Source: Patescibacteria group bacterium (lineage in GTDB: Bacteria > Patescibacteriota > Patescibacteriia > Magasanikbacterales > UBA922). Taken from it: 64,000 bases of DNA. This document shows, piece after piece, positions 1,525-57,781 of this stretch. The notes under the pieces are model-generated. The model had not been told where the DNA came from. It saw only the letters and a list, made by a program, of their open reading frames with translations, and made no database searches. The stretch is taken from positions 96,368-160,367 of the forward strand of contig JBAZIZ010000001.1 in NCBI GenBank assembly GCA_041651535.1, read 5' to 3'. Both the position numbers and the translations under genes were made by a program. Position 1 is the stretch's first letter. Each line of letters starts with the position of its first letter.

Positions 1525-1561
1525 CAAAATAAAAAAACAGACTTTTCTCAAGCCTGTTTTT

Positions 1562-3954: not shown

Positions 3955-3959
3955 ATTTT

Positions 3960-14700: not shown

Positions 14701-14955
14701 TATAGAACCTTTTAATTAGTAAAAACTTATAAAGAGTTTGTATTGTGTGTATCATCTATTTTTTTCTCCAAAGACCTAAATCCTTTAATATATATGGATT
14801 AATAAAATAAACAAAAGGACCCCAAATAGGAGTAAGGATGGCAGCAATATAATAATTATCGACAAAAAATCAAATTAACAAATCACCAATTGAAAACATA
14901 ATCAACCATGATAATCTACCAATATTTTTTTGTTCTTTACGTGTTAATTTTTTTC

Positions 14956-20029: not shown

Positions 20030-20033
20030 TAAT

Positions 20034-21470
20034 ATGGCAATATACAATGAAATAATCAATGATAGAATAACAAGAGTGGCTATATCCAGAACAAGTCATA
20101 AATGGTTTTTTGCTACTTATTTTAATCATTATATAACTTATAAGGCTGCTAAATTTCATCATGAAATGTTTGATATAAGTGAAAATGAAAATATTAATCA
20201 AGTAGCAATGGTGGCTTTTAGAGGTTCTGGCAAATCTACTATTTTTACTTTATCATATCCACTATGGGCAATAACTGGAAAACAAAGAAAAAAGTTTGTA
20301 GTTATTTTAGCCAGAACACAAAGACAAGCAAAACAGTTACTAAATAATATAAAAAAAGAATTAGAGTCTAACGAATTACTACGTAATGATCTTGGCCCTT
20401 TTGAAGATCAATCTGATGAATGGGGTTCTTATGCTTTACTTTTACCTTGGTATAACGCAAAAATAATATCTGTATCAATGGAACAAACAATACGTGGAAT
20501 GAGACATATGCAGTATAGGCCTGATCTAATTATTTGTGATGATGTGGAAGATCTTGATTCTGTAAAAACAAAAGAAGGGAGAGATAAAGTAAAAAAATGG
20601 ATTACTGGTGAAGTTATACCTGCTGGAGATAAAAATACAAGAATTATCTTTATAGGAAATCTTTTACACGAAGACTGCTTATTAATAAATATTATAAATA
20701 AAATAAAAGAAAAAAAAATAGATGGAATATATAAATTTATACCAATTGTTGATAATAATGAAAACATAATGTGGCCAGATAAATTTAAAAACATGGATGA
20801 GATTAAAAAAGAAAAAAATAAACTATCTAATAAAATATCTTGGCTAAGGGAATATATGTTAAAAATTGTACCTGAAGAAAATCAGGTTATTCACAGAGAA
20901 TGGATAAAGTATTATGACGAGTTACCTACTAAAAAAAATATTCATTATAGACAAACGGTAATAGGTGTTGATCTTGCAATATCACAAAAAAATTCAGCTG
21001 ATTATACAGCAATGGTTTGTATGCAAGTTCATGGACGTAATGAAAATTTAAAAATATACATATTACCAAATCCAATTAACAAAAGAATGACTCATCATGA
21101 AACACTAGAAACAATAAAAAAACTCTATGCAACCTTATCAACCAATGGACATCTCTTATCAAATATATATATCGAAGATGTTGGTTATCAAAAATCAGTA
21201 GTACAAGAACTTGATAGGTTTAGAGTCCCAGCAGAAGGAGTTTCTGTTTCTGGTACTGATAAAAGAACAAGACTTACCACAGTAAGTCATCTTATACAAA
21301 ATGGTGCAGTTATATTTCCTAGAAAAGGATGCGAATTACTAATTGACCAATTAGTTCATTTTGGCGTTGAAAAATATGATGATTTAGTTGATGCATTTAC
21401 TATTGCTTTAAATAAAGTAATACAGGATGATAATAGAGGTTATTTAGCTTCTGATTTTCTTTTGTTTTAA
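20034..21470 (+). CDS. phage terminase large subunit (Terminase_6/PBSX-like); ORF-track start 19980 overlaps terS, so the Met at 20034 (MAIYNE...) is the likelier start
   Basis: Walker A-like AFRGSGKST; Walker B LIICDDVEDL; C-terminal RNaseH-like nuclease region with conserved acidic residues. Confidence 0.7.
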   Translation: MAIYNEIINDRITRVAISRTSHKWFFATYFNHYITYKAAKFHHEMFDISENENINQVAMVAFRGSGKSTIFTLSYPLWAITGKQRKKFVVILARTQRQAKQLLNNIKKELESNELLRNDLGPFEDQSDEWGSYALLLPWYNAKIISVSMEQTIRGMRHMQYRPDLIICDDVEDLDSVKTKEGRDKVKKWITGEVIPAGDKNTRIIFIGNLLHEDCLLINIINKIKEKKIDGIYKFIPIVDNNENIMWPDKFKNMDEIKKEKNKLSNKISWLREYMLKIVPEENQVIHREWIKYYDELPTKKNIHYRQTVIGVDLAISQKNSADYTAMVCMQVHGRNENLKIYILPNPINKRMTHHETLETIKKLYATLSTNGHLLSNIYIEDVGYQKSVVQELDRFRVPAEGVSVSGTDKRTRLTTVSHLIQNGAVIFPRKGCELLIDQLVHFGVEKYDDLVDAFTIALNKVIQDDNRGYLASDFLLF

Positions 21471-22585
21471 TCACAATTCGGGTTTAAAGTCCTAGTTGGA
21501 TAAGCTATTAAAAGTTCTTCTAATGAGTTGAAAACTTTTAAATTACTAGGACTTAATTCTTGCCAACTTTCACAAGAAGCTGGGTAATAATATTTAGTTC
21601 TCCAATGTGAAGAAGTATAATATTTATTATCACTTTGTGTTTCTAAAATTGATTCATTTTCTGTTTCATTATTATTTGATTCAACATTAGATGCTTGAGT
21701 TGTGTCACCATCACATGTATCAGATGACCAAAGACCTCTTAGATTATCTCTTGCTTCTTTTTCTGCTGTTTTAAATTCTGCTTGATATTTATAAGGTAAA
21801 TTATATGTATATTCATGAGCAAAACCTTGTTCAATCATATATTTATTATAAAATAAACCGTCTTCACGATAAACATATGCTAATAATCTTCCATAAATAT
21901 CAAATTCACCTTGAGTAGGATCAGTTTCTATACGAACTTTTGTCCCTGATAAAAGTTCTTTAGCTTTATTAGATGCTTCAACTCCAAAACACTGAACAGG
22001 TTTTCTAGGGTCAACTGTTTCAGGAGTATCTAATCCTATAAGACGCAAAGTGATAATATCACCGTCTTTTAAAATTTTAATGGTATCACCATCAGTTACT
22101 TTTTCAACTTGATAATAAATATATTTTGAATCATTTGTTTCTTCTTCTTTTGTATTTTCAACATATTCTTCTGTATTATTTTTTTCTGTAATACCTTCTT
22201 CTGTCTTTAATTCAATTATATTTTCATCATCATTCTGAACAATATTTTCTGAAGTTTCATTTTCTGCTATTTCATTTACTAATTCTTCTCTGTTTTTTTC
22301 TTTCAAATTATTAGCAACAAATACTTCACCTTGATTACTATTTTCAACAGGTGGTGCGGTTATTCCCATTATTATAAAAGTTGCAATAATTAGAAAAGAG
22401 AATAAAAGGAGTATGTTTTTTCTTTTAGGAACCCTTTTTAAGGTATCATAAAAAATATTTGGCTTTATTAAACCTGCTACCAAAAAAAATACTGAAAATA
22501 TAAATAGAAAAAAAGAAAAAATAAACATATTATATATAAAAATAAAAAACCAATTATAATCAGCTGGTTTTTTGTTTTTAAACAC
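21467..22585 (-). CDS. membrane-anchored SNase/thermonuclease-like nuclease
   Basis: N-terminal TM helix; VTDGDTIKIL...RLIGLDTPET...YGRLLAYVY staphylococcal-nuclease motifs. Confidence 0.7.
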   Translation of the reverse strand: MFKNKKPADYNWFFIFIYNMFIFSFFLFIFSVFFLVAGLIKPNIFYDTLKRVPKRKNILLLFSFLIIATFIIMGITAPPVENSNQGEVFVANNLKEKNREELVNEIAENETSENIVQNDDENIIELKTEEGITEKNNTEEYVENTKEEETNDSKYIYYQVEKVTDGDTIKILKDGDIITLRLIGLDTPETVDPRKPVQCFGVEASNKAKELLSGTKVRIETDPTQGEFDIYGRLLAYVYREDGLFYNKYMIEQGFAHEYTYNLPYKYQAEFKTAEKEARDNLRGLWSSDTCDGDTTQASNVESNNNETENESILETQSDNKYYTSSHWRTKYYYPASCESWQELSPSNLKVFNSLEELLIAYPTRTLNPNCD

Positions 22586-22637
22586 AAAACCCCAGACCAG
22601 CCGGACCTTGCGGTCCTATATTTGTTTCCAAATATAA

Positions 22638-22682
22638 CTCGTTGAAAAGTCGCTGATCTTGGGGATCAGTATTTTCAACGAG
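22638..22682. other. nested palindrome CTCGTTGAAAA-[CTGATC ttgggg GATCAG]-TTTTCAACGAG; candidate att core or operator for the adjacent serine recombinase
   Basis: perfect 11-bp outer inverted repeat enclosing a 6-bp inner one; in the divergent intergenic region upstream of the recombinase; further small palindromes nearby (CTCATAAA..TTTATGAG, GACGCGTC). Confidence 0.3.
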
Positions 22683-22913
22683 GTTTCATACCATGCTCAT
22701 AAAAATTTATGAGTTTAGGTATCTGGTATTATCCAGTGTTAATTGTAATTACATTTTAACTTAAAAAAGCTAAAATGTCCAATTTAATAATAGCTTAGAT
22801 ATTGATTTTTGCGAAGTCTAGTTACCAACAGTTTACCTACTTCCCTACTGGACGACAGGAACGGGACGCGTCATTAATGTAAGTAATAAGATAATAATTT
22901 TTAATTTAATATC

Positions 22914-24206
22914 ATGGAACAAGAACAAGACAATCTTCAAGAAAAAGTCCGTTATTGCCTATATGCTAGAAAAAGTACAGAGCAAGATGAACTTCAAGCA
23001 TTATCAATAGATTCTCAAATCAAAGAAATGCTTGATATGGCTAATAAGGAAGGCATGAATATAGTAGAGATAAGAAAAGAAAGCCATTCGGCTAAAGATT
23101 CAGGGCAAAGACCAGTATTCAATCAACTACTCATGGATATAAAGAAAGGAATGTTTAATGGTATTTTATGTTGGGCACCTGATAGATTAAGTAGAAATGC
23201 AGGAGACTTAGGTTCAACAGTAGATTTAATAGATCAAGGTCATTTGTTAGAAATACGAACACACAGTCAAAAATTTACCAATAATCCAAATGAAAAATTT
23301 CTTCTCATGATCTTAGGTAGTCAAGCTAAATTAGAAAATGACCATAAAGGCGAAAATGTAAAACGTGGACTTAGAGCAAAATGTGAACAAGGCTGGCGAC
23401 CTGGCTTACCTCCTCTTGGATATTGGCATGATAAATATGCTAACAAAGGTCAAAAGAAAGTTTTTATAGATACTGAAAGAGCTCCTCATATAAAAAAGAT
23501 GTTTGAGCTAGTGGCTTATGAAAATTATAGTGGTAGAGATTTAGATATATGGCTAAGAAAAAATAATGTAAAAACTAAAAAAGGTAAAAACTTTACTTTA
23601 AGTATGGTTTATAGAATATTAGCTGAACGATTCTATTATGGAGATTTTGAATATCCTGTTGGTAGTGGAAAAATATATAAAGGATCACATGAACCTATAA
23701 TATCAAAAGAGCTTTTTATGAAAACAAGAGAAAACTTAACAGTAGCACCAAGAAGGCATCCTGGAACAATAGATTATGCTTTTACTAGATTATTTTATTG
23801 TGGAAAATGTGGTTCTGGAATATCAGCTGAAGAAAAATTTAAACATCAAAAAAACGGTACAGTTCATAGGTATGTCTATTATCACTGCACCAGAGGTAAG
23901 GACAGAAACTGTAAAGAAAAAGCAATTCGTGAAGAAGATTTGATCAAGCAAATGGTTAACCTGATTGATAAGATCGAAGTGGACCAATTAAAAATTGGCG
24001 AAAAAGTGAAAGCTGAAATGGATAGATTTAGGAAGTTTAGTTCTATGCTAGGACAAACCGCTGAACAGCTCAAAAATGTTAACCTAGATGCGAGAAACTA
24101 TGCCAAGTATATTCTTTTGGAAGGAAGTAAAGAGGAAAAAAGAGAGTTATTGGAGTGTATGAGAGGAAAAGTAGTATTGAAGAATAAGGAATTATTTGTT
24201 AAATAA
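22914..24206 (+). CDS. large serine recombinase (phage-type integrase)
   Basis: N-terminal resolvase domain with catalytic YARKSTEQD; recombinase domain; Cys-rich zinc ribbon CGKCGSG...YYHCTRGKDRNC. Confidence 0.85.
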   Translation: MEQEQDNLQEKVRYCLYARKSTEQDELQALSIDSQIKEMLDMANKEGMNIVEIRKESHSAKDSGQRPVFNQLLMDIKKGMFNGILCWAPDRLSRNAGDLGSTVDLIDQGHLLEIRTHSQKFTNNPNEKFLLMILGSQAKLENDHKGENVKRGLRAKCEQGWRPGLPPLGYWHDKYANKGQKKVFIDTERAPHIKKMFELVAYENYSGRDLDIWLRKNNVKTKKGKNFTLSMVYRILAERFYYGDFEYPVGSGKIYKGSHEPIISKELFMKTRENLTVAPRRHPGTIDYAFTRLFYCGKCGSGISAEEKFKHQKNGTVHRYVYYHCTRGKDRNCKEKAIREEDLIKQMVNLIDKIEVDQLKIGEKVKAEMDRFRKFSSMLGQTAEQLKNVNLDARNYAKYILLEGSKEEKRELLECMRGKVVLKNKELFVK

Positions 24207-24208: not shown

Positions 24209-24952
24209 CTATTTTTTAATTTTAGACTTTATAAAATCTAAAAATTTTTGATTAACCTGTAATTTTTGCTTACCATTTTCAAGTGTTAAATTAATTCCAG
24301 AAATATTTTTAAATAAAATTAAGGCGAATCTGATTACTTTTTTTGCATTACCTTTATCTTGCTTATTTCCAATATCGAAAGAATGAATATATTTATTTCT
24401 AATATTTCTAATTTCTTCTAACATTCTCGCGTTGTCTTCATCAATAATTTTAACTAAGTTCAATATTTTTATTCTTCTTTCTTGATCTACTTTACCAAAA
24501 AGAATTTTTTGTTCATTTTTATCAAGTATATTTCCACCCATTGAAAATTTATTCATTTCCCAAACAACATAAGACATCATTTCAGCAGAAAGTCCTGCAA
24601 GTGTAATACATGAAAGATATTCACCTAGAGTAAAATATTTTTTTGCTAAAAGTAAAGGTTGAATGATTCTATTGGTAATATCTTCATAATTTTGACTAGG
24701 AGTAATACCTAAATGAGTTTCGTCATCTGTAATTTCACAATATCGTCTTATTTCATCTTTTTTTATTTTAGAAAAATCTTTACCCAAAAAATCTTCCAGC
24801 ATTGAAATAGAATGATCCTGACGTTGTTTCAAATCTTTCTTTTTTGGTTTTGTTAATAACCAATTTTTATCATCTTCAGAAAAAATAGGACCGAAGCGAT
24901 TTAAATTTAGAAGAATAGTATTTCCTTGTGACATATCAACTACTTTCCTCAA
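24209..24952 (-). CDS. hypothetical protein with HEPN-like Rx4H motif; third gene of the MTase-helicase operon
   Basis: EEIRNIRNKYIHSFD near the C-terminus; start overlaps the MTase stop by 17 nt. Confidence 0.45.
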   Translation of the reverse strand: MRKVVDMSQGNTILLNLNRFGPIFSEDDKNWLLTKPKKKDLKQRQDHSISMLEDFLGKDFSKIKKDEIRRYCEITDDETHLGITPSQNYEDITNRIIQPLLLAKKYFTLGEYLSCITLAGLSAEMMSYVVWEMNKFSMGGNILDKNEQKILFGKVDQERRIKILNLVKIIDEDNARMLEEIRNIRNKYIHSFDIGNKQDKGNAKKVIRFALILFKNISGINLTLENGKQKLQVNQKFLDFIKSKIKK

Positions 24953-27900
24953 TAACTTTTATCTCCTCATCAGTTAAATCATAAAGCTTATAAACTAACT
25001 GATCAATTTCTTCTTCTAATTTAGAAGTGTCAGCATCTGAATTTTCTTTTCTTGTTTTTAGTAATGTGTCAACTAAATTTATAATCGGTCTTTGTTCTTC
25101 TAATGAAATACTAGGAATTGGTAAATTATTTATGGCGGGCATTGTGATTTGCCACCCAACGTAAGTTTTTGTATATAAGAAATTAATAACTTTAGAATTA
25201 AGTACCGCTAATAAATATTTTAATGAAAATTTTTGATTTTTCTGCAAACAAATATAAGCAGTATTTAATAAATAAAACTGATCATTATCAATAGTACAAA
25301 CGAAAGAATTACTTCTACGTGGAAAAATTATTTTCTCTTTTGCCAAAAACAGCCGTTCTTCCCTAGGTCTATGTAATTTTTTTGTATATTTAATATACCT
25401 ATTTTCTTTCTTTTTATCATATTCAATTAGATATTTTTTTATATCTCGTCCATCTAAGACCCTTTTGTAATTTTCATCAACTTTTTCATTAGCAAAAACA
25501 TCTTCCTTTTTTTGACCAGAGTATATAATACCTTGCTGAACCTCAATTATATCTGATAAGGTTGTCGAACTAGAATTAATTTTATTTATTATACAATTTA
25601 TATTGGCTGAATTTTTAGTTAAAATGATGTCATTGATATCTGACTGTTTAATTTCTGTAATTTTTTTATTTAAATCTAATAAAATTTGGATAGAGGAATC
25701 TTTTTTAGATTTATTCTTTAAAACAATCACCGAAGTGTCAACGGCCGCTTCAAAAACACGGGAAGAAAAGTTGGAGATAGTGCAAATTTGTGTTTTTTCT
25801 AATAAATATTTTCTAATATGTCTATATTCAGAATTTGTATATAAAGATTCTGGTAGAATGAAAGTTAGAATTCCATCAGTCTTTAATAATTTTTGACCTT
25901 TTTCTAAAAATAGTGTAAATAAATTAAATCTACCTTTACCTGTATCAAATAAAATAGAAAAACTTTTTTTGTTTTTAGATGTGATTTTTTTAACACTTAC
26001 GTATGGAGGATTGCCAATTACGACATCAAAACCACTTATACCAAACATAAATTTTGGATCAAAAAATTCTGCCACCTGTTCATTATCAAATGGATGATAC
26101 GACTGCAACTGTTCAAGTTTTTTGGATTTACCAAGTAAATTACCTTGATTTTTTGTTAATAAAAGCTTGTTAAACTTTTCTTTTAGGGCTGTCTTAACCT
26201 GCGGACTGCGAGCGTTAAAATATTTATCCCTAATATCCTGCATTTGTTTTTCCAAATCATCCGCTTCATCAAACATCTGTTTTTGTTTAGTATCATCCAA
26301 AGGAATTAGACTATTTGCACAAACAAATTTAAAATCAAGGTTTGGCAATGGTTTAATTTTGTTACTATCAACTTCTTCATCGACAACAATTGACAACCAT
26401 GCTCTAAGTCGTGAAATTTCCACTGCCATTGGCTCTATATCCACCCCATGCAAATTATTTTTGATAATCTCTAGTTTCTTTTTATAAGAATCAAATGTGG
26501 CATCCAATCTTTCATAAGTCTGCAAAAGCAGAGACAGCATACCCATAGGAAAAGCTCCGGATCCGCAAGCAGGATCAAGTATTTTTATTTCATCAAGGGC
26601 TTTTAGTATGTCATATTTATATGGTTTTAATTTATCACGATAATTTCTTTGCTGATCTCTCCAATCATGCTCTTTACTATCCAACAAATTATCTATTAAT
26701 TCAAATGACTTACCTTCATCACCAAGAGTATTTTTCAAATATTGCCTGAGACTCTCGCGAGACATATAATCAACTATTTCGCGAGGAGTATAAAAAGCAC
26801 CTTTGGCTTTTCTTGCCTGTTCTCCGGTTTCTTCTGTTTGTTCAGCTAACAAATTTTCAAAAATACGCCCTAACATCTCTGGGTCAATCGCCACTTGTTG
26901 AAATGTACTAGTACTTTCATCAGTTGTAAAATTGTAATGATGAAGAAAATCAACGAGTCGGTCAAAATAATCAGCAGGAAATGTAAGCTTTGGATCACCA
27001 TGCTTATCTCCAAGTTTTTCTTCAAATAAACCACCGTTCAAAAATGGAGTAATATTATCAATACTTTTCTCTCTATCCTCAATCGGAGTATTAAAAACTT
27101 TAAAAAATAAAGTTTCCAATTTTTCTCTGTAATATTCTGTTGAATTTTTTCCGCTAGTGTTAAAATAATCAATTTTATCATTAATAATACCTTTTTTATC
27201 TAAAAACCAACAAAATACTAATCTACCAATTAAACGATTGACGAAGTAAGAAGCGTGCTTATCGTCAAAAACTTTTTCCTTAATTAAATGTTGTTTTAAT
27301 TCTACAAAGAATGAGCTTACTTCCTTGTAGAATCGTTTGTTGAGAGGTTCAATGTCAAAGCTTTGCCATAAAATTTCATGGACTTGAGCTTTGTTTGTAA
27401 AATCAAATTCTTGTAGCCATTTTGAAAATATTTCTTGTTGCGTAATAGTTAATTCTCCTGAAAGTTCCAAAGTACGAATAACATAATTTTTACTTAATAC
27501 TACTATTACTTTGTCAGATCTTTCTGGAATAACAAAATCAATCCCTACATTTAGATTTCCATAAAAAGGCTCGTCCTCAAAATTCGGAGTAAGAGCCACA
27601 AGCCAACTGATAATTGATTTTTTAGGTTTCTTAACCCAATATACTTTTAAATCTATTTTTTCCAAATTATCATTTGATATTTTGTATGAAGCTCTACGGT
27701 CAGCAAAACCTTCCGCTTCCATAAACCAGCCAGCGTTTGATCTGATTTTACCTTGAGAATCTGTAAATAATTTCCATTCATTTTTGGATTCAATACCAAA
27801 TAATGATACCAAATTATTAATTACATTTTGAGTATTTGAAAAACTCTTTTCCTGTGACAGAATTTTTATTGATTCGTTTAATTCCTGAATTTTTTCTGGT

Positions 27901-27974
27901 AGTTTATTCATTGTCTTTGACATAATACAAAACTTGTTTTGAGCTGGTAGATTGAACAGGTCTATCTTTTCCAT
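24936..27974 (-). CDS. large (~1000 aa) gamma-class N6-adenine DNA methyltransferase (Eco57I / type IIG / PglX-like architecture)
   Basis: FYTPREIVDYM (motif X), ILDPACGSGAFPMG (motif I), VIGNPPYVSVKK (motif IV); ~370-aa N-terminal region and ~350-aa C-terminal putative target-recognition region. Confidence 0.8.
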   Translation of the reverse strand: MEKIDLFNLPAQNKFCIMSKTMNKLPEKIQELNESIKILSQEKSFSNTQNVINNLVSLFGIESKNEWKLFTDSQGKIRSNAGWFMEAEGFADRRASYKISNDNLEKIDLKVYWVKKPKKSIISWLVALTPNFEDEPFYGNLNVGIDFVIPERSDKVIVVLSKNYVIRTLELSGELTITQQEIFSKWLQEFDFTNKAQVHEILWQSFDIEPLNKRFYKEVSSFFVELKQHLIKEKVFDDKHASYFVNRLIGRLVFCWFLDKKGIINDKIDYFNTSGKNSTEYYREKLETLFFKVFNTPIEDREKSIDNITPFLNGGLFEEKLGDKHGDPKLTFPADYFDRLVDFLHHYNFTTDESTSTFQQVAIDPEMLGRIFENLLAEQTEETGEQARKAKGAFYTPREIVDYMSRESLRQYLKNTLGDEGKSFELIDNLLDSKEHDWRDQQRNYRDKLKPYKYDILKALDEIKILDPACGSGAFPMGMLSLLLQTYERLDATFDSYKKKLEIIKNNLHGVDIEPMAVEISRLRAWLSIVVDEEVDSNKIKPLPNLDFKFVCANSLIPLDDTKQKQMFDEADDLEKQMQDIRDKYFNARSPQVKTALKEKFNKLLLTKNQGNLLGKSKKLEQLQSYHPFDNEQVAEFFDPKFMFGISGFDVVIGNPPYVSVKKITSKNKKSFSILFDTGKGRFNLFTLFLEKGQKLLKTDGILTFILPESLYTNSEYRHIRKYLLEKTQICTISNFSSRVFEAAVDTSVIVLKNKSKKDSSIQILLDLNKKITEIKQSDINDIILTKNSANINCIINKINSSSTTLSDIIEVQQGIIYSGQKKEDVFANEKVDENYKRVLDGRDIKKYLIEYDKKKENRYIKYTKKLHRPREERLFLAKEKIIFPRRSNSFVCTIDNDQFYLLNTAYICLQKNQKFSLKYLLAVLNSKVINFLYTKTYVGWQITMPAINNLPIPSISLEEQRPIINLVDTLLKTRKENSDADTSKLEEEIDQLVYKLYDLTDEEIKVIEESS

Positions 27975-30900
27975 CCAAAGTCTTATAAGATAAACTGATC
28001 AATTCTTTTAATTCATCTAGGAAACCTTCGTTTGCTCTTTTTTGTTTCACAATCTTTCTGACTAGTCTTCTTATTATCTGTTGATCTATAATATTTTTTG
28101 TTTGAAAAGCCAGTCTGACTTGTTCAATATCCTCTTCCAATGTTTGACTTTCAAATAAAATTCTTAGTAATTCTGTTTGTTGAGGAAGTGGAGCACCTAT
28201 TTCATCATCCTCTGAATAAGTGGCAATGCTTTGTCTTACCTTTTCATCTATCATTTGTTTGTCCACGCTAATGTTGTCAGAAACTCTTTCATTATTATCA
28301 TCAGTTGTTCTCAACCACTCTAGAGCCTGCAAATTGGTTACAGCCTGAAAATTAGATCCGTCCCTTAACATAGAGACAAAACTATGACCAATTACTTCAT
28401 AATTTTCATCACGTAAATTATTAAAGGATAAAACATCTGGTCTTTGCTCACCGCGATGAACAGTATTTGGCATAATAGCCCATTTACCAAGTGAAATATT
28501 GTATATTTTATCTCTGTACTCTTCGGATAATTTATCATTAAGATGAAAGTTTTTTAGATCTGCTACAAAAATATCTTCTGCCAACAAGAAATCAGCTTCT
28601 CTTTCTAATTTTTCCATTGCTTCAATACGTTTTTGAATATCTTCACTATAAATATCTTTTAGATTATCAGTATATTCAATCGGATTTGCTAGCTCGTCTA
28701 GTACGGGGGAATCGGTACCGATAGTATTTTTAATCAAATTAATTTTGCCTTCTAATCTTTCAACCAGTTGTAGATACTCTTCAAGTTTTGCTTCTGGTGA
28801 AATATTGTAAATATAAACTTTGTCATATGTACTACCTAAACGATTTACACGACCATTTCTTTGAATCATTCGAACAGGGTTCCAATGCAAATCATAGTTA
28901 ACAAGAATTCCACAATCTTGAAGATTTTGACCTTCCGATAGGATGTCGGTTGAAAATAAATAATCTAATTCAGTTTCATCGTCTTTGATTTTATAATTTT
29001 TTGCTTTTGGTGCAAATCTATTTGCCGAGTTTTCGCTATCAACTCTATTTTTAGATGAAATGAATGCGGAATTTTCATTTGTAATAAATTTTGCGTATTC
29101 AGGCAATGCTTCTTTTAAATATTCTACTGTATCAGCATAAAATGAAAAAATTAAAACCTTTTTTCCTGCTGGCTGTTCTTTTTGAAGATTTTTTAATAAT
29201 TCCGCAAAAGATCTAATTTTAGAATCATCTTTACCTAAAATAGAAAGTTGTCTATCAAGAATATCTATCAATATTCTTTCTCTTCGTATATCTTCTCTCA
29301 GTGCTTCTATATTATATTTTTTATCATCAATATCATCCAATTCCATTTCTTCATCAATTTTAATATCTTCAGGATTAAAATCTTCATCACCAATACCCAA
29401 CATTTCTTCAATATTACTGAGATTTTTTAGACTAACGATTTTACCAATATCCAAACCTTTTTCAAAAACATCCAATTTTCTTTTGTAAATGTCTAGAGAA
29501 CTTCTAATCGCACTAACAGATGACTCTAATCTTTTTAAGAACATCGTTCGCAAAATCCCATAGATACTTAATTGAAGAAATAATGATTTACTTTCTCTTT
29601 CATCAAGTTTCATGGCTTTTACTTCACCTCTTGTTTTTCCATAGTATTTTGTTTGATACATCATCCATCTATAAGGAACAAATCCTAACAATAAAATTAT
29701 CTGATAAACAAAAGCGACAGCTGATAAATTTGAAAATTTTTCATCATCTACTTCTGCTTCCAAATTTTCAATTTGATCAAGAGGGTGTAAAAGTGCATTT
29801 GTGTTTTTAACAATCTTATCAATTGGTAATCTGTAAATTTTACCCAGATCCACTTCATTACTTTCTAGATTTTTAACTTCATCAGCTACTTCTTTATTAA
29901 AACCATATTTTTTAACCTCTGGAACAACAGTTGGAAAATGACTTTCTTTACCACCAATATTCAATCCGCCATATTCTTTTTCTATCCCTTGCCTTGTCCT
30001 CCTAACAACAAAAGCTCTAATAATAGGAGCCATTACTTGCTGGACATAATTTTTATCAAAACTTCCATCTCTTTTTAGATCCTGTTTTATTTTCTTTTGT
30101 AAATTTTCAATTGCTTGATAAAAAGACATTTGAACCGTCTGTTTCAACTTTTTATCAACCGATGTCACTTTTAATACATCGGCAACACCTCTAGTACCAA
30201 GTAATATTTGATTTACAATATCACCTAATTGATTGTTAATAGGAGTGGCAGTAAGTAGAAGTACGTGAGCTTTGGGGTTATTTCTTATCCATTCAATAAT
30301 TTGATCAAATCTTTTTCCTCCGCGATTTTTTAAATTATGAGATTCATCAATAACAAATAACGATACACTGGCAATATTATCAAGCTCTTTTTTTCTTTCA
30401 ATTTCATTGGGATTTTGCAATGTAATTGGCGAAAGACCCAAAACTCCTTGTATTGCCATTTCTTTTTCCCATTGAGTTTTTAAGGATTTTGGACAAATAA
30501 TTTCAACACGCTGTTGTCCAGAGTCAGTATTAAGATATTGTTTTATTACTTCAATAGCAGTATATGTTTTCCCCAAACCAACAGAATCTGCCAACATAGC
30601 AACTTTATATTTTTTCAATCTTCTAACAAGGGCATGAACATTTTTGACTTGAAAATCCAAAAGATCATATTTACCTTTGATAGTTTCATCTAAGTTTTCT
30701 TCAATCAATTCATCGCTATACAAATCATAAAGTGTTTTTATATATGTTTCATAAGGACTAAAAAGAGTATCGCCAGCTGGTGAATTTTCTAATAATTCAG
30801 TAAATTGACCATTCCATTCTTCTGTTTGAGGATCATCCCAAAATTTATCAAACCAAAATAAATGACCAACTTCTTGGGTTTTAGATTTTGGTTGAAATGT

Positions 30901-31395
30901 TACAATTCTATGATCAGGTTCAAGAGAATTCAGTTCGGTATTTGAAGTCAATCCATTTTTTGTAAAATTGGATGACCCAATAATTCCAATCGCATTATCT
31001 GAAGAATAATCACCAAATATATAACATTTTGCATGAAGAAAATTCTTTCGATAAACACGAACTTCCAAATTACCATTTTTAATCATTACTTTTATTTCCT
31101 TGACTAATTCTTTTAATTCAGGGGTCGGTTGAATTCTTTCTAGATCATAAAAAAAATCTTTATCAGGATAATCTGGCTCTGGTTCAAGTTTTTTATGTCT
31201 TGGTATAAGGGGCTCTCTACCAATTAGTAGCCTGATTTTTTTATAGTCTTTGATCAAATCAAAGACTTCTTGCATTCCTTTTAGATCCCAATATCCAGTT
31301 GCAATTGAGAGATTTTGATAGTTTGAAGTTATTGATTTTATTGTATCCAATAAAACAACCCTATCATTATCAATGATTTTATGAAGATTTGACAT
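27904..31395 (-). CDS. HKD (PLD-family) nuclease domain fused to SNF2-family helicase
   Basis: single HKD motif FLHAKCYIF...GIIGSSNFTKNG; helicase motif I LADSVGLGKTYTAI, motif II DESHNLKN, motif VI QRNGRVNRLGS. Confidence 0.8.
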   Translation of the reverse strand: MSNLHKIIDNDRVVLLDTIKSITSNYQNLSIATGYWDLKGMQEVFDLIKDYKKIRLLIGREPLIPRHKKLEPEPDYPDKDFFYDLERIQPTPELKELVKEIKVMIKNGNLEVRVYRKNFLHAKCYIFGDYSSDNAIGIIGSSNFTKNGLTSNTELNSLEPDHRIVTFQPKSKTQEVGHLFWFDKFWDDPQTEEWNGQFTELLENSPAGDTLFSPYETYIKTLYDLYSDELIEENLDETIKGKYDLLDFQVKNVHALVRRLKKYKVAMLADSVGLGKTYTAIEVIKQYLNTDSGQQRVEIICPKSLKTQWEKEMAIQGVLGLSPITLQNPNEIERKKELDNIASVSLFVIDESHNLKNRGGKRFDQIIEWIRNNPKAHVLLLTATPINNQLGDIVNQILLGTRGVADVLKVTSVDKKLKQTVQMSFYQAIENLQKKIKQDLKRDGSFDKNYVQQVMAPIIRAFVVRRTRQGIEKEYGGLNIGGKESHFPTVVPEVKKYGFNKEVADEVKNLESNEVDLGKIYRLPIDKIVKNTNALLHPLDQIENLEAEVDDEKFSNLSAVAFVYQIILLLGFVPYRWMMYQTKYYGKTRGEVKAMKLDERESKSLFLQLSIYGILRTMFLKRLESSVSAIRSSLDIYKRKLDVFEKGLDIGKIVSLKNLSNIEEMLGIGDEDFNPEDIKIDEEMELDDIDDKKYNIEALREDIRRERILIDILDRQLSILGKDDSKIRSFAELLKNLQKEQPAGKKVLIFSFYADTVEYLKEALPEYAKFITNENSAFISSKNRVDSENSANRFAPKAKNYKIKDDETELDYLFSTDILSEGQNLQDCGILVNYDLHWNPVRMIQRNGRVNRLGSTYDKVYIYNISPEAKLEEYLQLVERLEGKINLIKNTIGTDSPVLDELANPIEYTDNLKDIYSEDIQKRIEAMEKLEREADFLLAEDIFVADLKNFHLNDKLSEEYRDKIYNISLGKWAIMPNTVHRGEQRPDVLSFNNLRDENYEVIGHSFVSMLRDGSNFQAVTNLQALEWLRTTDDNNERVSDNISVDKQMIDEKVRQSIATYSEDDEIGAPLPQQTELLRILFESQTLEEDIEQVRLAFQTKNIIDQQIIRRLVRKIVKQKRANEGFLDELKELISLSYKTLDGKDRPVQSTSSKQVLYYVKDNE

Positions 31396-31512
31396 GTAAT
31401 TGAATTTTAATAATTATAGATATTGTACTATTTTTGACCACAAAAGTAAAGTTATCAGAAAAACAAAAACCACTCTTTTGTAGAATGGTTCTTTTATTTT
31501 AATGAAATGACC

Positions 31513-31538
31513 TACTCGAGTCGGTTTCACCAAAATTA
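31513..31538. repeat. copy 4 of the ~29-nt direct repeat CGAGTCGGTTTCACCAAAATTAG
   Basis: 21/22 identity with the core of the 33058-33086 copy; overlaps the stop of the 31536..32117 gene. Confidence 0.55.
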
Positions 31539-32117
31539 GTCAACAAGACCAATAGATTCAGGAATGACTCCATGCAGAGGGAAAGAACTTGTGTTAATAA
31601 AAATCATCCAGTACAAAGCATCTTCAATACCAACCATAAAAGGAGCTATTTTTGCCACTACAAATTTAGAAATTTTTCTATATTTAAAATCACTTTTTAA
31701 TCTATCAAAATTAATTGGTTTGTTAATTATTAATTTTCTAAGATAGTTTGAAAACAAATACCATAATTCATCTTCATATAAAAAAACAGCAGGTATGTTA
31801 ATTTTCTTAAACAATATTTTTAATTGATCTTTTAAATGAATAAATGAAGTCAATTCTTCAATGTATTTATTAACCACATGCCGATCCCAAAGAACTTCTC
31901 TTTTATTAAATAATCTATTTAATTCTTCAAAATAATTATACATTTCTTTAATATTATCTTTTTTCTTATGCAATATCCAATCAGAATAAAATTTAATTAC
32001 CCTAAATTGTTCAGTATTTTCATCTTCTAATAAAATTCTGATCGAGGAAAAGAAATAATTTACATCAGCTTCAGATTTAAAACCTTTATCAATTATTTTT
32101 TCTATTGTTTCTTTCAT
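31536..32117 (-). CDS. hypothetical protein (possible paralog of 33164..33778)
   Basis: 193-aa ORF; same position relative to the direct repeat as the 204-aa ORF. Confidence 0.5.
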   Translation of the reverse strand: MKETIEKIIDKGFKSEADVNYFFSSIRILLEDENTEQFRVIKFYSDWILHKKKDNIKEMYNYFEELNRLFNKREVLWDRHVVNKYIEELTSFIHLKDQLKILFKKINIPAVFLYEDELWYLFSNYLRKLIINKPINFDRLKSDFKYRKISKFVVAKIAPFMVGIEDALYWMIFINTSSFPLHGVIPESIGLVD

Positions 32118-32281
32118 AAATTTATATCTAAATTCATAAAAAAATTAATGTTTTTTATCTTTTAAAACATAATAATTTGACATATTTTATGAGTTAAAAT
32201 TAAATATATTTTTATATTATCATTTTTAATTTATATTGTAAAACAAAAAAATAAACTTTTAAAAAAATTTTATTATGTTTT

Positions 32282-32998
32282 TTAATTATCTAAGTTATTT
32301 TCAATAAAAAATAAACACGAATTGATATAATCAAACAACATATTAATTAATTCACCTTGATTCAAGCTTGAACTTTCCACTATTTCTTCATCTGTTTTAG
32401 AACATGCAACTTGTTTTACATTATGTCTCATATCACTCATAAACCATGTACACTGTTTATGTTTCTTTTGATTATGTACAATGTCAACATTTCTATAATT
32501 AACAATAGAATCTATAATTTCTTTAAGCATAGGTAGATTTTTATCTTTAAATTTTTTTACCCTTTCATCATCTCCTGAATATACTTTTAATTTATTATAA
32601 AATTTAGTGATTGACCTATCACCAATGTCTCTCCAATCATAAAGAGATCTAAATAGTTCTGTAAAATCATCTAAAAAGATTTTAATAAATATATATAAAC
32701 ACTTTAAATCTAAAGAATTTTCTCTATTTATAGCTTCACTTTTTTTTCTTAAAATTTGACCTAGTTCATTAATTGTATTATTAATATTATTTTCTTTTTG
32801 AATTTCTCTTTCATTTCTTTCAAATAAAAAAATATTTCTTTCTAATCTTGTAAAAATAGTTTCAATATCATAAAAAGAACGCAAAACAACAGAAATTCTA
32901 CGGTTTAATTTATTACCTTTATTATATTTTTCTTTATTTAAAATATTAGATATATTTGATATTTTATCTCTAATATTTTTAAAATCTATAGTTTCCAT
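32282..32998 (-). CDS. hypothetical protein with HEPN-like Rx5H motif
   Basis: IVNYRNVDIVHNQKKH. Confidence 0.45.
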   Translation of the reverse strand: METIDFKNIRDKISNISNILNKEKYNKGNKLNRRISVVLRSFYDIETIFTRLERNIFLFERNEREIQKENNINNTINELGQILRKKSEAINRENSLDLKCLYIFIKIFLDDFTELFRSLYDWRDIGDRSITKFYNKLKVYSGDDERVKKFKDKNLPMLKEIIDSIVNYRNVDIVHNQKKHKQCTWFMSDMRHNVKQVACSKTDEEIVESSSLNQGELINMLFDYINSCLFFIENNLDN

Positions 32999-33057
32999 AT
33001 ATTTATTATAACAAAAACCGTCCTTTTTTAGAACGGCTTTTTTATTTGGTGATATAA

Positions 33058-33086
33058 CCCAATCGGGTCGGTTTCACCAAAATTAC
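33058..33086. repeat. copy 3 of the direct repeat CCCAATCGGGTCGGTTTCACCAAAATTAC
   Basis: 27/29 identical to 35011-35039. Confidence 0.6.
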
Positions 33087-33163
33087 CTGCTCTAATAAAA
33101 GAAACAAATCAAGGTTCAAAATAAATTTTTATAATTTTAAATAAAATCAATATACTATTTCGT

Positions 33164-33778
33164 TTATTCAAATTTGAAAGGAACAACTAAAACAGTACTA
33201 TCACTATGTAAAATATATAAATTTATAAGCCCTCCCCAAATTGGAACTGTATTTTCTTTAAGTGAAACCTGAGTTACCCAACACCCTAATTTTATAGGAT
33301 TTGCTTTTATATTTTCAATAATAATTTTATCTTTCTTTTTTGTTAAATTCTGTGATAAGTGTATAGGGCAATCTTGTAAAATTTTAATAAGATTAACAGC
33401 AAAATTTTTCCAAAAATAATCGTTGTCAAAAATCGTCACATTAATACTATTTTTTTTTAATAAATACTTTATTTCAGTACGTAAATCTTTAAATGAGATG
33501 GCACCCGAAATAAGTACAGATACTAAGTTTTTATCTTTAAAAGTTTTAATATTTGATATTATTTTATTTAGTTTTTCTATAACATGTAATGCCGCAGTTC
33601 TATCCATATCAATATGAACCGACCAATTACAAAAAAATTCAAGAAGTTCTATATCTTTTTCATTAGTATTATCAATTAATTTTCTCATTAGTACCATCAA
33701 ATGAACTATATGACTCTCACTTAAATTATCAGGTAGCGTAATAATATTAGCTATTTTATTAACAATTTCATTTCTCAT
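33164..33778 (-). CDS. hypothetical protein
   Basis: 204-aa ORF. Confidence 0.5.
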   Translation of the reverse strand: MRNEIVNKIANIITLPDNLSESHIVHLMVLMRKLIDNTNEKDIELLEFFCNWSVHIDMDRTAALHVIEKLNKIISNIKTFKDKNLVSVLISGAISFKDLRTEIKYLLKKNSINVTIFDNDYFWKNFAVNLIKILQDCPIHLSQNLTKKKDKIIIENIKANPIKLGCWVTQVSLKENTVPIWGGLINLYILHSDSTVLVVPFKFE

Positions 33779-33803
33779 AATATAACTACGCTTAGTTTAT
33801 TTT

Positions 33804-34751
33804 TTAAAAAGGTAAATCTTCTATTATGTTAGAATCCTCTTTTAGAACCCAGATTGCATTTTTGTTAATTTTATATTTATTAAGATAATTATTTTTAATA
33901 TTTTCCACTTCTTCCGTTGAAATAAATTTTTCTGGTAAAGATAAAATCACCAACTCTGCAATCGACATACAATTATATGTTACTAATTTATAAAAATTAG
34001 AATTATTTACTGGAATAGTATTTTGATCTGTATGCCTTATGTTACTGATCTGATTCGCTAAATCTTTAGAGTTTTTAACAGCATCGTTAAGTAATTTTGT
34101 TAGCGATAAAACGTTCTTTTCGCTAGTCCACTTTTGAGATACCATTTTGCAAAGATTTTCACTGTAATTCTTTGTATTTTTTTTATCCTTTGGACTACTA
34201 AAAATATTTTGTATTAAATCAGCAGTGATTCTTGATAAAACTTGATAATTAGGATTCTCAATATTTGTTAAGAAAAACTCTTCCAACTTATCTTTTAAAG
34301 ACTTATTTTTTATGAATGGCACAACTGACCTAACACCGGTTATATTTTTATTAAAAAATAAATACTCATGTATCAAAAATGGCGTATCTTCTTCCTCTAA
34401 TATATAATTAATTCTTGTTATAACAATACTCCTCTTTTCTTGTTTACTAAAAATAATTAAAATTTCTAATAAATCAAATATTACTGCATCTTTTTTATTA
34501 GAATAACTTAAACAATTTTTTAAATCAACATAATCCACAATAGAATTTCCTATTTCTCTCATTCCTAACTCTTTAAGAGAATCATGATTTAAACAAAATA
34601 TATTTTTTTCCTCGTTATATACTAAAAGAAAACGTTCAATATATTCATCGCTACTTGATATAAATTTAATCTCTTCAAGAAGACGGTTTCTTATTCTTTC
34701 TTCTAGAAAATTTTTATCTGCTTGTTTATATCTTTTTGAAAATAATTCCAT
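33804..34751 (-). CDS. hypothetical protein
   Basis: 315-aa ORF. Confidence 0.5.
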   Translation of the reverse strand: MELFSKRYKQADKNFLEERIRNRLLEEIKFISSSDEYIERFLLVYNEEKNIFCLNHDSLKELGMREIGNSIVDYVDLKNCLSYSNKKDAVIFDLLEILIIFSKQEKRSIVITRINYILEEEDTPFLIHEYLFFNKNITGVRSVVPFIKNKSLKDKLEEFFLTNIENPNYQVLSRITADLIQNIFSSPKDKKNTKNYSENLCKMVSQKWTSEKNVLSLTKLLNDAVKNSKDLANQISNIRHTDQNTIPVNNSNFYKLVTYNCMSIAELVILSLPEKFISTEEVENIKNNYLNKYKINKNAIWVLKEDSNIIEDLPF

Positions 34752-34806
34752 AATAAAAAACTAAACACAAACGAGAACTACCTCGCTTAAATTAAGACCC
34801 CCAAAA

Positions 34807-34833
34807 ACGGATTGGTTTCATAAAAATTATTTT
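34807..34833. repeat. degenerate copy 2 of the direct repeat (GGATTGGTTTCATAAAAATTAT)
   Basis: about 16/22 identity to the core motif. Confidence 0.35.
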
Positions 34834-35010
34834 TTCAGGGATAAGGCTTCGTCTTTCGTCGGCTTCCACCTCCTTAGACTAGTATAATTTTATACATAAT
34901 AACAGCTTATATTGTACTATCTTTTAACCTAAAAGTAAAGTTAATTAAAAAAACAAAAATCGCCTATAAATGGCGATTTTTGCATATAAAACTTAGGTGA
35001 AGTTTTCTGA

Positions 35011-35039
35011 CCCAATCGGGACGGTTTCACCAAAATTAT
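35011..35039. repeat. copy 1 of the direct repeat CCCAATCGGGACGGTTTCACCAAAATTAT, 4 nt from the tRNA-Gln 3' end
   Basis: abuts the tRNA (35044); the same motif recurs three more times downstream on the tRNA strand. Confidence 0.6.
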
Positions 35040-35043
35040 CTGC

Positions 35044-35114
35044 TCGGGGACAGGGATTCGAACCCCGATAGCCAGGACCAAAACCTGGAGTCCTACCGTT
35101 AGACGATCCCCGAA
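35044..35114 (-). tRNA. tRNA-Gln(UUG)
   Basis: reverse complement TCGGGGA-TC-GTCT-AACGGTA-GGAC-T-CCAGG-TTTTGGT-CCTGG-CTAT-CGGGG-TTCGAAT-CCCTG-TCCCCGA-G; U1:A72 as in many tRNA-Gln; anticodon UUG. Confidence 0.8.
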
Positions 35115-35594
35115 TATTGTATATATTATTAAATTGTAATTTTCACAAAACTCACATGTTTGTTTACATACCGTTAGACCCGTCCGCCATGGCTTCGCCG
35201 TAGGCGTGCCGGGCGGGCGATCCCCGAATATTGTATATATTATTAAATTGTAATTTTCACAAAACTCACATGTTTGTTTACATACCGTTAGACCCGTCCG
35301 CCATGGCTTCGCCGTAGGCGTGCCGGGCGGGCAATCCCCGAATATTGTATATATTATTAAATTGTAATTTTCACAAAACTCACATGTTTGTTTACATACC
35401 GTTAGACCCGTCCGCCATGGCTTCGCCGTAGGCGTGCCGGGCGGGCGATCCCCGAATATTGTATATATTATTAAATTGTAAATTTCACAAAACTCACATG
35501 TTTGTTTACATACCGTTAGACCCGTCCGCCATGGCTTCGCCGTAGGCGTGCCGGGCGGGCGATCCCCGAATATTGTATTTTAACAAAAAATTAT
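35115..35594. repeat. four tandem copies of a 120-bp unit, each ending in the tRNA-Gln 5' end (positions 1-10)
   Basis: units at 35115-35234, 35235-35354, 35355-35474, 35475-35594 are near-identical; on the tRNA strand each reads tRNA[1-10] + 39-nt GC-rich segment + tRNA[11-20] + AT-rich tail; the trailing copy is truncated. Confidence 0.8.
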
Positions 35595-35602
35595 TTTAGC
35601 TT

Positions 35603-36508
35603 TTATTTCCTTAAATATTTACTCATTGCAAAAGAACTTGATAAAGCAGTGAGTAAAAATACTACTAAAAACTGAAAACTTACGAGCTCCATTATATTAG
35701 AATAATAGTATTTTGTCAATAGATCTTGCGCTGAAAAAATTACATTTAAATAATTATCCAAAAAAGAAACAGCAAATAGTATAATCAAAAAAGATAAAAC
35801 TATGCTGAGCATAGAAAATACCAAAGCTTCAATTATATATGGACCTTTTACATACCAATTTGTTGCTCCAACCAATTTTTTTATTCCAATTTCAATTCTC
35901 TGTGTATAAATTGCAACTCTGATAGTATTAAAAATTATTACAAAAGAAATAATAGCAAATAAAGCAGTCAGAAAATAAGTAAATTTTTCCAATTGGTTTG
36001 TTACATTAGTTATTTTTTCGATCGCAATTTCTGTATCATCAAAAGTTTTTGCTTCAATTATTCCACGGTATTCTGGTACATCCAAAGCAGAAATTATTTT
36101 TTTATAATCTCTTGGATCTCTAGTTTTAACAATTAAAGTTGGCCCTAATGGATTTTCTCCAAGTTCAGTCAAAGATAACATAATTTCTTCATTATCAGCA
36201 TAAAGTTTTTTAAAATTTTCCAAAACCTGTTCTTTTGTTAAAAAAGTTTCACTAGTTACTTCTGGAAAAGAACTAATATAACTTCTGATTTCAGAAATTT
36301 CTTCTTCAACAGCTTTAGCATTAAAATAAACACTAACATCAATTTGGTCTTTGACTGTATCAATAGATTTTTGTGTAATTATTCTTACAACAATCAAAGT
36401 ATTTATAGACAGAAGCATCAAAATCAAAATCAAAACTGTCATGAATGACAAACTAAAATTTCTAAAAATATCTTGAAAAGCAAATTTTAAAATTCTAATA
36501 AAACCCAT
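35603..36508 (-). CDS. ftsX: cell-division ABC transporter permease FtsX
   Basis: N-terminal FtsX fold, 4 TM segments, adjacent to ftsE. Confidence 0.8.
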   Translation of the reverse strand: MGFIRILKFAFQDIFRNFSLSFMTVLILILMLLSINTLIVVRIITQKSIDTVKDQIDVSVYFNAKAVEEEISEIRSYISSFPEVTSETFLTKEQVLENFKKLYADNEEIMLSLTELGENPLGPTLIVKTRDPRDYKKIISALDVPEYRGIIEAKTFDDTEIAIEKITNVTNQLEKFTYFLTALFAIISFVIIFNTIRVAIYTQRIEIGIKKLVGATNWYVKGPYIIEALVFSMLSIVLSFLIILFAVSFLDNYLNVIFSAQDLLTKYYYSNIMELVSFQFLVVFLLTALSSSFAMSKYLRK

Positions 36509-36517
36509 AAAAAATAT

Positions 36518-37198
36518 TTATAATCTGTATTTTCCTGACTCTTCGTCAGAAATTATTTTTCCATCATGAATTGTGATAACTCTTTTTTTCAATCTATTAA
36601 CAATATCACGGTTATGAGTAACTAACAAAACAGTAGTTCCAAAATCATTTATTTTTTTTAAAATTTCAATTATTTCTTCGGTATTTATAGTATCCAAATT
36701 TCCTGTTGGTTCATCGGCTACTAAAATTTTTGGAGCGTGTACTAAAGAACGAGCGATTGCTACTCTTTGTTGTTCACCACCAGATAATTCATGTGGATAA
36801 GAAAATTTTTTATGACTTAAACCAACAATATCCATAACTCGTGGTACAACTTTTTCAATTCTTTTACGATTATCACCTGCAACTTCCAAAGCAAAAGAAA
36901 TGTTTTCTTCAACTGTCTTTTTTGCTAATAATTTAAAATCTTGAAAAATAACTCCAATCTGACGACGTAAAAAAGGAATTTCTTTATTTGAAATATTTGT
37001 TATATCCCAACCGCCTATTTCTATTTTTCCATTATCTGGTCTTTCTTCAGCAATAATCAATTTTACTAAAGTTGTTTTTCCTGTACCACTTTGTCCAACC
37101 AAAGACACAAATTCTCCAGCTTTAATTTGTAAATTAATATCTTTTAGACCAAAACTATCTCGGCTATATTGTTTGTGAATATTTTTTAAATTGATCAT
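36518..37198 (-). CDS. ftsE: cell-division ATP-binding protein FtsE
   Basis: Walker A GQSGTGKTT; ABC signature LSGGEQQRVAIARS; Walker B ILVADEPT. Confidence 0.9.
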   Translation of the reverse strand: MINLKNIHKQYSRDSFGLKDINLQIKAGEFVSLVGQSGTGKTTLVKLIIAEERPDNGKIEIGGWDITNISNKEIPFLRRQIGVIFQDFKLLAKKTVEENISFALEVAGDNRKRIEKVVPRVMDIVGLSHKKFSYPHELSGGEQQRVAIARSLVHAPKILVADEPTGNLDTINTEEIIEILKKINDFGTTVLLVTHNRDIVNRLKKRVITIHDGKIISDEESGKYRL

Positions 37199-57773: not shown

Positions 57774-57781
57774 CAAGATAA

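Follow-up and report, generated by a model that had tools for sequence, protein, structure and literature searches.

Copies of a tRNA-Gln 3' flank separate small gene cassettes in a serine-recombinase island of a Patescibacteria genome: a candidate insertion hot spot

Genomic islands and cis-mobilizable elements (CIMEs) accrete in tandem at the attachment (att) sites of tRNA genes, where they are delimited by direct repeats that include the tRNA 3' sequence and where some modules lack an integrase. In the staphylococcal and enterococcal cassette chromosomes (SCCmec and ECC), which depend on a serine recombinase, the att sites are direct repeats of about 50 bp with inverted repeats inside them, and multiple copies are present in many of these elements (PMC6222049). 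Here we describe a locus in a stretch of 64,000 nucleotides (nt; the window) from contig JBAZIZ010000001.1 of a Patescibacteria group bacterium, a member of the Candidate Phyla Radiation (CPR), in which two small gene cassettes lie behind a tRNA-Gln gene and are separated by copies of the tRNA 3' flank. As in the tRNA accretion arrays and CIMEs, the array starts at a tRNA 3' end and is made of repeat-bounded modules with tRNA 3' bases and no integrase of their own. The differences are that most of the repeat belongs to the trailer and not to the mature tRNA, with a tRNA-derived part of 0 to 18 nt, that the only recombinase nearby is a serine and not a tyrosine recombinase, and that here we infer mobility. 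With moderate confidence, we regard the locus as a tRNA-Gln-linked insertion hot spot to which DNA was added several times.

The window has a GC content of 26%, and its FtsX and FtsE proteins are closest (56-72% identity) to those of metagenome-assembled genomes (MAGs) of Candidatus Magasanikbacteria (CPR/Patescibacteria). The tRNA-Gln gene that anchors the locus (Table 1) is directly preceded by ftsE and ftsX (35603-37198), and the synteny of FtsX with tRNA-Gln is also found in the Magasanikbacteria stretches L005-L008 and L018. Every gene downstream of tRNA-Gln, as far as position 24209, lies on the minus strand. The order is tRNA-Gln, repeat unit A, a decayed tRNA fragment with unit D, the genes of a 315-amino acid (aa) and a 204-aa protein (cassette 1), unit B, the genes of a 238-aa and a 193-aa protein (cassette 2), unit C, and a gene for an HKD nuclease-SNF2 helicase. 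The succession A, cassette 1, B, cassette 2, C was the same in three independent assemblies (ENA, JGI and Logan). When other arrangements were sought by exact-protein look-ups with the SNF2 gene and the 204-aa gene, every assembly of the organism gave the same one.

The core of the repeat, CCCAATCGGG(A/T)CGGTTTCACCAAAATTA, is present three times on the plus strand, at 35011-35038 (copy A), 33058-33085 (copy B) and 31511-31538 (copy C), with start-to-start distances of 1953 and 1547 nt. A pattern search that allowed up to three mismatches gave these three matches as compared to 0.00 expected (100 shuffles), which confirms the copies that an initial annotation of this DNA had placed at 35011, 33058 and 31513. 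The identity between copies is 27/28 for A and B, 24/28 for A and C and 25/28 for B and C, and the 17-nt core CGGTTTCACCAAAATTA is exact in all three. Copy A stops 4 nt short of the tRNA-Gln 3' end. The repeat had been taken for a bare att core of 29 nt; the repeated unit is actually a transcription-unit boundary of 85-140 nt, made of a trailer hairpin and an intrinsic terminator, with the addition of a promoter-like site in A and C. Read in the direction of transcription, the '29-nt motif' is the 5' arm and the inner stem of the trailer hairpin, and the repeat unit corresponds to the 3' flank of tRNA-Gln. A profile of the unit, run with nhmmer over the 64 kb, detected A, B and C (E-values in Table 1) and nothing else at a significant level. 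Further copies, also on the far side of the serine recombinase described below, were sought in the window with blastn-short and nhmmer, and none was found. We also considered the motif as a small peptide (LVKP[ST]R[LV]G), and this was ruled out: there is no ribosome-binding site and the lengths range from 12 to 46 aa.

The fourth copy, D, had been reported as a degenerate one at about 34807-34833. The motif alone has 3 mismatches in 17 positions and gives a weak nhmmer match (E = 0.22). When the tRNA 3' end and the motif together were aligned locally to 34796-34851, the score was 44, as compared to 21.0 ± 2.9 for shuffled sequences, and none of 500 shuffles reached 44. Copy D is therefore real, its significance being due to the inclusion of the adjacent tRNA-derived bases in the alignment. 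The stretch 34796-34851 is therefore a piece of the tRNA-Gln 3' end that has decayed together with its own trailer; behind it lies a terminator-like hairpin (34768-34789). The number of tRNA-derived bases differs between the distal copies: at least 18 nt in D, 7 nt in a copy from a relative (L045, see below), 6 nt in B and none in C. In fact, copy B extends over 6 of the 7 further nt into the tRNA 3' end and trailer (CTGCTC), and the ATG of the 238-aa gene directly follows its unit. At the other end of the array, the TAA stop codon of the 31536-32117 open reading frame is formed by the first 3 nt of copy C on the minus strand, and the promoter-like site of unit C precedes the HKD-SNF2 gene.

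All copies fold into a first hairpin followed by a terminator hairpin with a U-run, with z-scores from -4.4 to -5.4. The 3' arm of the first hairpin is variable (UUCACC, UCACC, UUUCAUU), and its pairing with the invariant 5' arm is preserved through G-C/G-U exchanges, which are possible on the transcribed strand only. These features would be explained if the hairpin and terminator were a functional RNA, that is, a 3'-end module selected for processing, stability or termination, a model that is compatible with the others. As the account of this locus we consider it very unlikely. The changes in the stem are one-sided, with 0 compensatory double changes in n = 5 sequences, and a search of 31300-35700 against Rfam at a permissive threshold returned only tRNA, with no family for the hairpin unit. 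Moreover, the module is absent from the other transcription units of the 64 kb and from the other Magasanikbacteria tRNA-Gln trailers, and selection on RNA leaves unexplained the tRNA-derived bases found in B, D and L045.

The distribution of the motif was analyzed in metagenomes. A scan of JGI metagenomes with a 19-nt motif pattern gave 41 stretches, two of which (L018 and L045) share the surrounding sequence. Both were obtained from a single sample, and they represent tRNA-Gln-type loci in a relative that is about 75% identical to the window in the ftsEX region. In IMG/VR, where an element-borne attP was sought with the motif, 9 pattern hits were obtained and 0 of them share the flanking motif, so that the extended motif is found in no viral contig. 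A generic dispersed repeat, similar to repetitive extragenic palindromic (REP) sequences or to miniature inverted-repeat transposable elements (MITEs), or a chance similarity, has next to no support: there is nothing in its favour beyond the AT-rich background, as opposed to 0 matches expected by chance, no other copies in the window and metagenome matches at tRNA-Gln loci only. The motif is confined to the tRNA-Gln locus and is not the generic genome-wide element that would have spoken against the initial annotation.

The two related loci differ in what lies behind the tRNA. The order in L018 is FtsE, FtsX, tRNA-Gln, one unit and a type I restriction methylase gene. Unit C is the copy closest to this single unit (83% over 141 nt). 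In L045, the bases TTGCTCG, 7 nt from the tRNA end, stand in front of the unit, which is joined to what is left of a serine recombinase homologue (its C-terminal 117 codons) and has a Shedu gene fragment behind it. The L045 junction is within the coding region of the recombinase, where gene and tRNA trailer have a short similar sequence (ATTATC..TGC), and on sequence grounds it looks like a secondary deletion. The units of L018 and L045 are similar over about 150 nt. The more distant Magasanikbacteria L005-L008 retain FtsX and tRNA-Gln, and their tRNA-Gln trailers do not contain the motif; since downstream synteny is also lost in them, attB cannot be defined from these genomes. The region behind tRNA-Gln is therefore variable between relatives, with defence genes in each genome examined.

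The array is located at the edge of a larger mobile region. About 17 kb of the window, from approximately 18.3 to 35.0 kb, is a phage-derived serine-recombinase island that carries defence cargo and whose lineage is tied to tRNA-Gln (Table 1), because homologues of its recombinase adjoin tRNA-Gln, together with the same ParB-methylase and terminase genes, in viral contigs. Such homologues, 53-54% identical, are found in two IMG/VR contigs (L078 and L079), where tRNA-Gln lies 117 nt or 2 kb past the recombinase stop codon and is convergent with it, as in the window. Both contigs encode homologues of the ParB-methylase and of the small terminase; one adds the large terminase, and the other (L078) a LOOT RNA. 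The 2-kb gap between recombinase and tRNA-Gln holds two cargo genes, coding for a DUF2939 protein and for a protein with a sub-threshold match to a NucS-like nuclease (Pfam E = 0.017). This recombinase lineage recurs at one target, namely tRNA-Gln in L078 and L079 and a tRNA-Gln fragment beside the recombinase remnant in L045. The slot between recombinase and tRNA collects cargo. The island's candidate integrase is the serine recombinase encoded at 22914-24206, and we identified no genes for phage structural proteins in the window.

On this basis we propose the following history. The native order would be that seen in a relative, namely tRNA-Gln, trailer hairpin, terminator, promoter and next gene. 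Every insertion would have duplicated a segment of the tRNA 3' end and trailer, so that the modules are now separated by its copies, and the stack formed in this way would fill the space that the phage-derived island offers for cargo, from tRNA-Gln to its large serine recombinase. The duplications may have arisen through Campbell-type insertion at an att-like site, carried out by the serine recombinase. The cassettes without a recombinase would be remnants of larger elements, or passengers mobilized either in trans or through recombination inside the approximately 30-140 nt that the units have in common, and unit C would have retained the original downstream flank, with an expected likeness to the single unit of L018. 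The tRNA-derived bases, the confinement of the motif, the variable region and the link between recombinase and tRNA-Gln all fit serial insertion at an att-like site. In addition, the 17-nt core is invariant in 5/5 good copies, the flanks being only 65-83% identical, which is the pattern that would be expected of a recombination core.

Several observations weigh against serial insertion. The repeat-bounded modules contain no recombinase, and the serine recombinase itself lies beyond copy C, outside the A-C interval, with no closing copy on its far side in the 64-kb window. The tRNA-side ends of the copies (at least 18, 7, 6 and 0 nt) are not those of one fixed crossover point. Classical large serine integrases leave no long direct repeats. 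The nearest single-unit relative (L018) is only about 75% identical in DNA, the IMG/VR motif scan revealed no mobile element with a matching attP, and among the assemblies, which have the same order throughout, there is no empty site, circular junction or strain polymorphism. Finally, homology between the copies goes well past any plausible core: the identity is 78% between A and C over 50 nt of promoter, and 82% between B and C in the terminator.

This last observation would also be explained by homologous recombination, which is the main rival explanation. In this case, the unit would be an ordinary intergenic boundary (tRNA trailer, terminator, promoter) common to related islands, and RecA-dependent single crossovers or unequal exchange within its 85-140 nt, involving related strains or elements, would have built the array with no need for a site-specific recombinase, in agreement also with the variable tRNA-side ends, with the likeness of the L018 and L045 units over about 150 nt and with the modules lacking an integrase. 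We regard it as unlikely, considering that 85-140 nt at 65-83% identity are a poor substrate for RecA, that an invariant 17-nt core within diverged flanks is unexpected for neutral duplicates, and that the recombinase lineage is specifically linked to tRNA-Gln. The site-specific serial integration at the tRNA suggested by the initial annotation is thus retained in part: the copies do derive from the tRNA flank, are confined to this locus and lie in a variable region, while the constant ends expected of a single site are not observed and no excision product or empty site was found.

The four cassette proteins gave no significant match to Pfam, NCBIfam, PADLOC, PHROGs or to a PDB sequence profile. 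None of them has recombinase domains, in agreement with the earlier remark that the segments contain no integrase. The 204-aa and 193-aa proteins, already suspected to be diverged paralogs, are indeed distantly related (BLASTP 3e-07, 21% identical), and one family profile matches both. Their genes end close to the repeats, as had been noticed: 33164-33778 at 78 nt from B, and 31536-32117 with its stop inside C. When the two modules were compared with each other, the relationship proved to be restricted to these genes, since the 315-aa and 238-aa proteins are unrelated. A tandem duplication of the whole module was ruled out: besides the lack of relationship between the larger genes, the identity is only 21% for the ~200-aa paralogs, as compared to 86-96% for the repeats. 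Nor are the modules the two-gene islets of the initial annotation, in that they are not conserved pairs: the neighbours of the ~200-aa gene vary. A conserved two-gene toxin-antitoxin or defence pair is likewise not supported, because the partners of the ~200-aa gene differ and homologues of the 238-aa protein are found in another operon.

The family of the ~200-aa proteins comprises 1761 clusters at 50% identity (E <= 1e-3), and a profile search in the 90% database returned 5 proteins only. The structural model of the family is confident, with no fold match in the PDB, and tblastn of the 204-aa protein against plasmids and phages gave no match. Family members sit in mobile or variable regions with changing neighbours, which include a 322-aa protein, a 981-aa protein, Fic, tyrosine integrases and a small terminase; some members are tandem paralogs and some are solitary. 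The 322-aa neighbour has a PIN-like N-terminus by eye, with no Pfam match. Tandem paralog pairs were observed in unrelated lineages (L054 5089-7501; L061 2604-4194), for example in a Margulisiibacteriota MAG, and behind the pair of L054 lies the gene of a 259-aa protein whose sequence includes an RNDLSH (Rx4H) motif.

The 238-aa protein is helical and contains the Rx5H motif that had been called HEPN-like. The motif itself is sound, R169 and H175 being invariant in 7 sequences; the predicted model shows long helical hairpins with generic fold matches only, and the protein is a possible HEPN member. Its homologues have no ~200-aa partner; their genes stand last in an operon of five that includes an SMC-like ATPase, beside a ParB-methylase. 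Judged by their context, the cassette genes are probably accessory and of defence type.

Table 1. Features of the tRNA-Gln locus and of the adjoining island (positions in the window).
Feature	Position	Strand	Evidence or remark
Tandem copies (4.2 copies, 114 nt, 99% identical) of the tRNA-Gln promoter and first ~25 nt of the tRNA	35104..35578	-	
tRNA-Gln (UUG), locus anchor	35043..35113	-	ARAGORN; Rfam tRNA, 56.3 bits
Unit A, tRNA-proximal: motif 35011-35038 inside hairpin 34990-35037; terminator 34953-34983; promoter-like site 34911-34939	34905..35045	-	nhmmer, 2.1e-36
Unit D: decayed last ~18 nt of tRNA-Gln (34834-34851) and degenerate motif (34796-34833)	34796..34851	-	local alignment
Cassette 1, gene 1: 315-aa protein	33804..34751	-	no detectable family
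Cassette 1, gene 2: 204-aa protein, large unannotated family	33164..33778	-	ends 78 nt from copy B
Unit B: CTGCTC within 33086-33092; motif 33058-33085 inside hairpin 33045-33081; terminator 33013-33041	33005..33092	-	nhmmer, 1e-25
Cassette 2, gene 1: 238-aa helical protein, R169-x5-H175	32282..32998	-	
Cassette 2, gene 2: 193-aa divergent paralog of the 204-aa protein	31536..32117	-	family profile, 2.3e-41
Unit C, distal: motif 31511-31538 inside hairpin 31496-31536; terminator 31465-31493; promoter-like site 31422-31450	31398..31540	-	nhmmer, 3.6e-40
HKD nuclease-SNF2 helicase (defence-type cargo)	27904-31395	-	Pfam, PADLOC
Type IIG restriction-modification enzyme (defence-type cargo)	24936-27974	-	Pfam, PADLOC
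DUF4145/HepT-like 247-aa protein (defence-type cargo)	24209-24952	-	Pfam, PADLOC
Large serine recombinase, convergent with tRNA-Gln	22914..24206	+	Pfam Resolvase 6.7e-24, Recombinase 1e-14, Zn_ribbon_recom 4e-08
LOOT RNA	22603-22721	-	Rfam RF03000, 92.8 bits
SNase-family nuclease	21467-22585	-	
Large terminase	19980-21470	+	
Small terminase-like helix-turn-helix protein	19643-20029	+	
ParB-N6/N4 methylase	18301-19638	+	

During the analysis of the island, we observed that the LOOT RNA lies 192 nt upstream of the recombinase in the window; in L078 it is found at 3454-3581 (minus strand, 82.4 bits), 2.5 kb upstream of the recombinase homologue. LOOT RNA may belong to this family of mobile elements; a literature search on it gave nothing usable. 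Further genes of defence type are that of an adenine methylase of the EcoRI family (Pfam 2.3e-141), located at 13318-14379, and that of the SNase-family nuclease at 21467-22585. A noncoding stretch at 14513-14748 is 89% identical to L045 3379-3616, far above its surroundings, and has a GC-rich core (14592-14618). It gave no match to Rfam at the gathering threshold and may be an unrecognised structured RNA.

The tRNA-Gln gene is also rearranged on its 5' side. A GC-rich hairpin of 39 nt (CCCGCCCGGCACGCC...GGCGGACGGG) breaks up the D-loop in each of the tandem copies at 35104-35578; as the ENA assembly breaks there, the number of these copies may be uncertain. In L018 (1928-2300), two GC-rich hairpins are inserted in a disrupted copy of tRNA-Gln, after which come a small GIY-YIG gene (Pfam 1.7e-16) and then the intact tRNA-Gln, and in the more distant relative L005 a 5' tRNA-Gln fragment with a GC hairpin (3945-4010) lies upstream of the intact gene. 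Another tRNA of the window (815-1525) shows the same pattern, with a 5' fragment that contains a GC-rich hairpin of 40 nt (815-880) and, behind it, a gene for a 61-aa GIY-YIG protein (893-1078, Pfam 5.9e-15). The intact tRNA, at about 1152-1525, has an apparent intron-like insert of about 300 nt in the anticodon loop, possibly a group I intron; ARAGORN reports its 3' part only (as a 'tRNA-Ser', 1439-1525) and Rfam misses it. At 57640-58090, a tandem repeat (115 nt x 2.1) comprises the 3' half of a tRNA-Lys (57701-57774) and its terminator. The hairpin TCCCGACGATACGTCGGGA replaces the anticodon arm in the extra tRNA-Lys copies, and the T-loop of a third copy holds a GC-rich hairpin. One possibility is that the partial tRNA duplications, the GC-rich hairpins and the small GIY-YIG genes at these three tRNA loci reflect a single break-and-repair process that captures DNA at tRNA genes.

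In the literature we found no description of mobile-element insertion or cargo accumulation in CPR/Patescibacteria, a subject that appears little documented. The locus offers a concrete CPR case of a phage-derived, tRNA-Gln-tied serine-recombinase island, with a candidate attachment region of about 45 nt and a small stack of cargo. Because it recurs in mobile and defence contexts, the unannotated ~200-aa family could have a new function in defence or counter-defence. A more far-reaching form of the insertion model is that the tRNA-Gln trailer hairpin is an att site regenerated at each insertion, the incoming DNA bringing the invariant half-site, and that the island serves as an integron-like stacking platform for recombinase-less accessory and defence cassettes in CPR, including the ~200-aa family. 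We consider this quite unlikely.

The resemblance to integrons is partial. As in integron arrays and in clusters of attC sites lacking an integrase (CALINs), small co-oriented cassettes each end in a similar imperfect-palindrome repeat. Unlike those, the cassettes described here bring their own terminators and promoters, and the repeats derive from the tRNA flank. No IntI or tyrosine recombinase domain is present among the island proteins scanned with Pfam, and no R'/R'' boxes of attC (GTTRRRY) were seen in the units on inspection by eye.

SCCmec and ECC, which are inserted by CcrAB at the 3' end of rlmH, offer another parallel: in both cases a serine-recombinase island lies at the 3' end of a conserved gene and has multiple att-like copies and variable cargo. 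Here the target is tRNA-Gln and not rlmH, a single recombinase gene takes the place of ccrA and ccrB, the recombinase is outside the repeat-bounded modules, and the backbone is phage-like (terminases, ParB-methylase). The SCC att motif TATCATAA was not seen when the units were read, a reading that involved no dedicated search.

The island also resembles temperate phages and satellite islands that integrate at tRNA genes and carry defence 'morons' (units of promoter, gene and terminator). It shares with them the terminase and ParB-methylase genes, an integrase at the edge beside the tRNA, and a cargo slot with restriction-modification, helicase-nuclease and Shedu-type genes; it differs from them in having copies of the host tRNA flank between its cargo units. 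That insertions recur at a tRNA gene and leave repeats of its flank is well known, and this locus is probably a CPR case, tied to a phage-derived serine-recombinase island.

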